Assembly (NCBI RefSeq): GCF_044324875.1
Contig: NZ_CP172185.1
Strand: one strand, 5' to 3'
From: Escherichia coli
GTDB lineage: Bacteria; Pseudomonadota; Gammaproteobacteria; Enterobacterales; Enterobacteriaceae
Length of the DNA stretch: 64,000 nucleotides
In this document: positions 46,746 to 46,764 of the stretch, in pieces
Layout of the letters: each line of letters opens with the position of its first letter
Numbering within the stretch: the first letter of the stretch is position 1
Position numbers and translations under genes: made by a program
Notes under the pieces: model-generated
What the model was told of the DNA's origin: nothing
Databases searched by the model: none
Seen by the model: the letters and a program-made list of their open reading frames with translations, nothing else

Positions 46746-46764
46746 TGGTGTCCCTGCAGAAATC
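46746..46764. other. Degenerate copy of the argW 3' end (distal att site of the argW-integrated element)
   Basis: tggtgtccctgcagaaatc versus the tRNA 3' end tggtgtcccctgcaggaatc at 62080-62099, same orientation. Confidence 0.5.

Follow-up and report, generated by a model that had tools for sequence, protein, structure and literature searches.

Duplications of a tRNA gene end that flank integrase-bearing elements are textbook knowledge; the P4 integrase, for example, integrates at a tRNA-Leu gene. Duplication of attB at the two edges is a routine criterion for delimiting P4-like elements (bioRxiv 10.64898/2026.02.27.708500). The att sites of Kapi1, Sf6, HK620 and KplE1, located at the argW 3′ end between dsdC and yfdC, consist of a 16/17-bp duplication, (A)ATGGTGTCCCCTGCAG, and the argW tRNA stays intact after integration of Kapi1, Sf6 and HK620 (PMC8787464). 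Escherichia coli K-12 has an annotated distal att copy of this kind, pawZ (b4643), which belongs to the cryptic prophage CPS-53/KplE1. The argW-dsdCXA region is described in the literature as a highly variable island, or hot spot, and this is attributed to phage integration. PAI-CFT073-argW, with IpuA and IpuB, has already been catalogued, and the ipuS/UpaE switch and the phase variation of UpaE have been characterised (PMC6083910).

We analysed a 64,000-nucleotide stretch of E. coli DNA from contig NZ_CP172185.1, here called the window, in which two accessory modules lie between dsdC and argW (Table 1). They meet at the 19-mer TGGTGTCCCTGCAGAAATC, read directly from the sequence at 46746-46764 on the plus strand. 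We are confident that a 15.3-kb P4-related element inserted at the argW 3′ end and that this 19-mer is its distal att junction. The feature is real and ordinary, a product of the usual site-specific integration into the 3′ end of a tRNA gene; only this particular element and its context are new.

The likeness to pawZ is close. Both copies derive from argW, lie in the dsdC-argW interval in the same orientation, contain the core ATGGTGTCCCCTGCAG and lose identity to the tRNA after TGCAG; in K-12, the distal copy of CPS-53 reads ATGGTGTCCCCTGCAG and then ACATC. The two differ in the element to which they belong, a P22-like IntS/TorI prophage for pawZ versus a P4-related, satellite-type element here, in their arms (ACATCTACTT in CPS-53, AAATCATCTT in the window element) and in the C-run, which is CCCC in pawZ and CCC in the window copy. 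A shared target core is unsurprising because the integrase (Int) of the element is 33% identical to IntS of CPS-53 over its full length. Kapi1, Sf6 and HK620 are complete temperate podoviruses with perfect repeats, whereas the window element is a 15-kb satellite-type element whose distal copy is imperfect. With P4-like satellites it shares a P4-type integrase architecture, AlpA, Ogr/Delta, a tRNA-proximal int and att sites at both edges. Unlike P4, it targets argW and encodes, besides a second tyrosine recombinase, a homolog of the P2-type major capsid protein; sid and psu were not detected in it. The other module, named here after its autotransporter UpaE, has the genes and gene order of CFT073 and lies, as there, between dsdC and argW. 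The CFT073 order is dsdC, ipuB, ipuA, luxR, upaE, ompH, argW, with nothing between the module and the tRNA gene, whereas in the window and in strain ECCNB12-2 the P4-related element is interposed.

Table 1. Features of the dsdC-argW region in window coordinates; gene names in the UpaE module region follow the CFT073 and ECCNB12-2 annotations.
Feature	Position	Strand	Basis or remark
dsdA	30662-31990	-	
dsdX	32008-33345	-	
dsdC, left chromosomal anchor	33563-34510	+	
ipuB-ipuA-luxR(ipuR)-upaE-ompH module, PAI-CFT073-argW type	34485-46745	+	
ipuB	34907-35476	-	
ipuA	36225-36854	+	
LuxR-type regulator (ipuR)	37172-37792	+	
upaE autotransporter	37817-45730	+	
ompH-like gene	45778-46308	+	
Distal att copy, P4-related element	46746-46764	+	alignment and comparative breakpoints
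P4-related integrative element, 15.3 kb	46765-62079	-	ORFs, domain searches, same element in other genomes
Distal att arm, specific to this integrase	46765-46897	+	
MazE/MazF-type toxin-antitoxin pair	46982-47574	+	between capsid homolog and distal att
Capsid homolog and 236-aa ORF pair	47618-49599	-	
IS21-family insertion (istA, istB)	~50246-52884, approximate	-	
Second tyrosine recombinase, 346 aa, Int_N + Phage_integrase	54053-55093	-	
AlpA-family regulator, putative excisionase	59807-60028	-	PF05930, E 5.5e-17; PHROG excisionase families
P4-type tyrosine integrase	60639-61901	-	Arm-DNA-bind_3 + Phage_int_M + Phage_integrase
Integrase-proximal att arm, with TATACCCATTTT at 61957-61968	61902-62079	+	
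Proximal att copy, true argW 3′ end TGGTGTCCCCTGCAGGAATC	62080-62099	+	identical to empty-site genomes
argW, tRNA-Arg(CCT), intact	62080-62154	-	ARAGORN; sequence as in unoccupied genomes
yfdC, right chromosomal anchor	62230-63162	-	

Read on the plus strand, the argW 3′ end is TGGTGTCCCCTGCAGGAATC (62080-62099). The 19-mer repeats it in direct orientation with 18 of 20 positions identical: one C is missing from the C-run and one G is replaced by A, giving the layout TGGTGT-CCC-TGCAG-A-AATC. Because of the 1-bp indel, ungapped repeat searches with the tRNA end overlook it. The exact 19-mer occurs once in the window (0.01 expected). When the argW 3′ end was aligned locally, with gaps allowed, to both strands of the complete window, the 19-mer was the best match with a score of 30, followed by matches scoring 26 and 24. 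A score of at least 30 was reached somewhere in 2 of 60 Markov-simulated 64-kb sequences, which makes the repeat by itself only a mild outlier. Two independent comparative breakpoints fall on the 19-mer to the base, and since the sequence statistics are weak when taken alone, the case for the repeat is one of position. The A at 46745 also agrees with the A at 62079. We count it as flank, outside the core, because genomes in which the element adjoins the csc locus have C at that position.

The first-pass annotation had placed a boundary between two independent acquisitions at 46746-46764, to be checked by alignment against genomes with an empty dsdC-argW interval and against strains carrying a single module. 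We searched 5426 complete E. coli genomes with the boundary region (window 45700-47700) using megablast. Most matches run from the start of the query to 46764 and then continue into tRNA-Arg, and a smaller group begins only at 46739-46746. The whole junction, and with it the stacked arrangement of UpaE module and P4-related element, was found in a single other complete genome, ECCNB12-2 (NZ_CP033635.1). We also used a query in which the end of the UpaE module was joined to argW, counting a genome if at least 80% of the query length was covered at one place. The UpaE flank is joined directly to argW in 186 genomes, including CFT073 and 042, and homology to the window ends there at 46764. In E. 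coli 042, 600 of 600 flank bases are identical to the window and are followed by a perfect tRNA end. The dsdC-argW interval is empty, at about 95-113 bp, in 911 of the 5426 genomes.

The same P4-related element adjoins argW in seven other genomes, eight with the window. To its left lies one of four contexts: the UpaE module in the window and ECCNB12-2, the bare dsdC-argW spacer in HNSQ2209 and TOE17, a CPS-53-like IntS prophage in ETEC4067 and E92, or the csc sucrose locus in PEC240 and HCP5S3_I2. In every element-bearing genome, the flank switches immediately left of TGGTGT, with homology to the window starting at 46745/46746. Matches with the UpaE module only thus stop at 46764, those with the element only (HNSQ2209 and TOE17, for example) start at 46745/46746, and the proposed position of the boundary is borne out. 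The two modules are independent acquisitions, as had been claimed, because each occurs without the other as well as together with it, and empty intervals exist. The pattern of distal copy plus arm was found in none of 100,044 species-representative genomes, and an element with this att seems restricted to a small number of E. coli lineages.

The same annotation had treated the repeat as the distal boundary of the UpaE island. Its position stands; its ownership does not. The repeat belongs to the P4-related element only, because genomes with the UpaE module alone have no second copy and because the variant copy and its arm travel with the element. Both the variant and the arm (starting ATCTTAATT) accompany the element into genomes that have no UpaE module. 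Further, the int-bearing edge always adjoins the live tRNA gene, also in ETEC4067 and E92, which have an IntS prophage beyond the element, and this is the pattern expected if the element was the last arrival. The P4-related element arrived second, after the UpaE module. The locus shows what an att duplication is judged by: a repeat at the far edge, a tRNA-proximal int next to an intact tRNA gene, an unoccupied site in other genomes and the same ends across contexts. ETEC4067 (locus L002) has three copies of the argW end, at 3747, 17008 and 29678, in the order csc flank, CPS-53-like prophage, P4-related element, argW. Here, two integrases sharing 33% identity have used a single att core to build up a mixed tandem array.

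On our reading, the locus before insertion resembled that of 042 or CFT073, with dsdC, ipuB, ipuA, ipuR, upaE and ompH leading up to the argW 3′ end. The tyrosine integrase recombined the attP of the element with the last 15-16 nt of argW. Integration put the element between the UpaE flank and the tRNA gene and left an intact tRNA gene beside int, and the copy at the far end is a hybrid in which the shared core joins the host flank to the arm of the element. Int, probably helped by the AlpA-family protein, would recombine the two copies into an excised circle and restore the 042-type junction. The predicted attP circle reads ...AAGTTGCGA-TGGTGTCCC(C)TGCAG-AAATCATCTTAATT..., and the element may still be able to excise. 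The predicted attP junction was absent from viral and metagenome contig collections, where absence is no sign of immobility. Because no excised or packaged junction was found in these collections, we infer both the attP sequence and current mobility. The IS21-family insertion in the window copy may impair the element.

Two other origins of the 19-mer have to be weighed against integration of this element. A chance match of 18 of 20 positions in an AT-rich intergenic stretch, unrelated to integration, could appeal to the simulated 64-kb sequences that equal the gapped score (2 of 60) and to the other matches in the window, which score 24-26. The match, however, falls exactly on two independent comparative breakpoints, and the repeat accompanies the element in four flank contexts that are unrelated to each other. 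From the simulations, the probability that a match of this quality falls, on one strand, only a few bases away from a given point is on the order of 1e-5, and we consider coincidence next to impossible. The 19-mer could also be an old, decayed att scar that predates the element, either as the boundary of the UpaE island itself or as what remains, in the manner of pawZ, of an IntS prophage since lost. K-12 retains such a relic in pawZ, and elements are known to be stacked at this hot spot, with three argW-end copies in ETEC4067. Yet the 186 genomes with the UpaE module only run from the flank straight into the tRNA without an extra copy, the variant (A at the G position, then ATCTTAATT) accompanies the element in genomes without a UpaE module, and relics of CPS-53 have a different sequence, TGCAGACATC followed by TACTT. 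An older scar is therefore highly improbable, and an att junction made by the P4-related element is the reading that we adopt.

Accepting an att junction, we asked how its two differences from argW arose. All eight distal copies read ...TGCAG-A-AATC and then ATCTTAATT, the junction being ...TGCAGAAATC joined to ATCTTAATT. The C-run is CCC in six of them and CCCC in two, E92 (locus L007, 6008) and PEC240 (locus L010, 5001), which keep the G>A change. The tRNA-proximal copy is a perfect tRNA sequence in all element-bearing genomes compared. The base before TGGTGT tracks the host flank, with A in the 042, intS and dsdC-spacer contexts and C in the csc context. The first-pass annotation had called the window copy degenerate. 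The word is misleading, the same variant being present in four flank contexts. For the same reason, the missing C and the G>A change were most likely carried in by attP, an imperfect mimic of the tRNA end, rather than acquired by decay. Decay of a once-perfect duplication after integration would fit the readiness with which homopolymer C-runs mutate, the two genomes with CCCC and the lack of the attP sequence in viral or metagenome contigs. Against it, G>A is found in 8/8 copies and CCC in 6/8, in four flank contexts and in three or more lineages of the element, so that the same two changes would have to recur independently. The distal copy of CPS-53 also has A after TGCAG, as would be expected if identity stops at TGCAG for this group of integrases. 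We give decay a small probability.

If the deviations were brought in by the element, strand exchange would have taken place within TGGTGTCCC(C)TGCAG, left of the A at 46760, in the core that KplE1/CPS-53, Sf6, HK620 and Kapi1 use as well. With CCCC in E92 and PEC240, the state of the C-run is not uniformly element-borne; the CCC/CCCC difference may reflect heteroduplex resolution in the overlap, attP polymorphism, slippage or a homopolymer assembly error. In PEC240, yfdC is frameshifted.

Relatives of the element with the same cargo (94-96% identity) match only window 46898-59384 and have a different integrase. One example, FDAARGOS_1299, is inserted between hpt and gcd, a non-tRNA site. The segments 46765-46897 and 59385-62079, the latter with AlpA, Int and the proximal arm, form a swappable integration module, because they are replaced together in the relatives that use another integrase. 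FDAARGOS_1299 (locus L013, 4322-4520 and 17100-17520) is a clean case of such a swap. The distal arm contains a tandem TGTACCCGTTTT/TGTGCCCGTTTT arrangement at 46820-46842, with TGTACCCGTTTT occurring twice. The arm motif is enriched (4 matches versus 0.46 expected), and its position is kept in the eight argW-type elements. The hpt-gcd relative has different tandem arm repeats, TTGATACAC, in both arms. We infer from these sequences that TGTACCCGTTTT, TGTGCCCGTTTT and TATACCCATTTT are candidate arm-type Int sites.

The element encodes MazEF, a P2-type capsid homolog, the 236-aa ORF, Ogr/Delta, the IS21-family genes, the second tyrosine recombinase, a Toprim primase, an Icd-like protein, AlpA and Int. 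Int has three integrase domains (PF13356, PF22022 and PF00589), and its gene lies 178 bp from argW. Ogr/Delta was recognised by PF04606 (E 2.3e-11), and the 897-aa Toprim primase has a full-length match to phrog_1139. Compared with the core set of P4-like satellites (Int, AlpA, alpha, epsilon, delta, Sid and Psu), the element has the P4-type integrase together with AlpA and a Delta/Ogr-type activator, and no recognisable sid or psu. The place of sid/psu, downstream of ogr/delta, is taken by the 236-aa ORF and a 423-aa homolog of gpN. Because sid and psu were not detected and a gpN homolog is present instead, we class the element by its gene content as P4-related and not as a canonical P4-like satellite.

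The capsid homolog matches Pfam PF05125 (E 1.5e-73) and the P2 gpN structure 7jw1_A (E 7e-56). By tblastn against phage genomes, its identity to the capsid proteins of 186 (T) and PSP3 (N) is 36-39%. At the N terminus, it is extended by about 100 aa. The adjoining 236-aa ORF gave no match in Pfam, PHROGs, PDB sequences or phage genomes (tblastn). The pair of genes occurs in 56 of the 5426 complete E. coli genomes and finds no mention in the surveys of P4-like satellites that we consulted. A satellite-encoded capsid subunit and its 236-aa partner could redirect or sabotage capsid assembly of a helper, replacing the external Sid scaffold.

Other parts of the element also deserve description. Just upstream of the MazE/MazF pair are two 29-nt direct repeats centred on TGTAGACACA (46905-46967), which could be an operator. 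The IS21-family genes, istA (51117-52763) and istB (50345-51343), lie between ogr/delta and the second recombinase gene. This insertion is flanked by a 5-bp target duplication and is missing from the otherwise near-identical copy in ECCNB12-2. The 45-nt repeats at 52774-52888 are probably the multiple terminal repeats of this insertion. The second tyrosine recombinase gene is directly downstream of the primase gene and is kept in all relatives, including those with another edge integrase.

The UpaE module has neither an integrase nor an argW repeat of its own. Identity with empty-site genomes ends at 34484, inside the last codons of dsdC, and divergence starts at 34485; the dsdC product is 315 aa instead of 311 aa. 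From 34485 to about 34600 (~115 bp), the window is collinear with the ancestral dsdC-argW spacer at about two-thirds identity. This spacer alignment scored 19, compared with 5.6 ± 2.2 for shuffled sequences (z = 6.1; 0 of 1000 shuffles reached it) and 2-7 for controls. The accessory DNA proper begins near 34600, and the left edge of 34511 given by the first-pass annotation was a fair approximation. With diverged spacer homology at 34485-~34600, the accessory genes lie between the diverged spacer and the very end of argW, at its 3′ side. The alignment suggests that the UpaE module and the adjoining spacer arrived together from a divergent lineage. The dsdC gene itself is about 98% identical despite its diverged 3′ end and spacer.

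A search for a third argW-like repeat at the dsdC end (34480-35000) gave best local scores of 10-13, equal to background. With no repeat at this end, the UpaE module shows no signature of site-specific integration. We also considered the TGATAA before the core as a relic of an integrase arm, aligning the 437-bp end of the UpaE module with the K-12 intS-argW spacer and with the int-argW spacer of the element. The scores, 18 and 18, equal the shuffle means, and the motif was rejected as chance. In E. coli 042 (locus L009, 4146-12586), an IS1 lies between a truncated oxc and a 5′-truncated upaE, and the evgAS/emrKY/dsdCXA/ipuAB region is deleted; the junction of the upaE end with argW is intact.

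At the well-known argW-dsdCXA hot spot, this analysis fixes the boundaries of two accessory modules exactly and verifies them by genome comparison. It shows that the UpaE adhesin module can be separated from the P4-related element and which of them came first, and this is useful for annotation and island typing. General understanding is unchanged: duplication of a tRNA end is textbook, the argW core has been published, and pawZ is annotated. Two by-products are mildly interesting, the imperfection of the distal copy, which seems to be encoded by the element, and the capsid-protein homolog that the element carries. One could go further and picture a rare P4-related lineage with capsid-based helper interference, whose attP is an imperfect argW mimic that limits strand exchange to the last ~15 nt; we offer this tentatively and rate it as rather unlikely. 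If it is true, the core held in common with IntS phages would allow mixed tandem arrays at argW.
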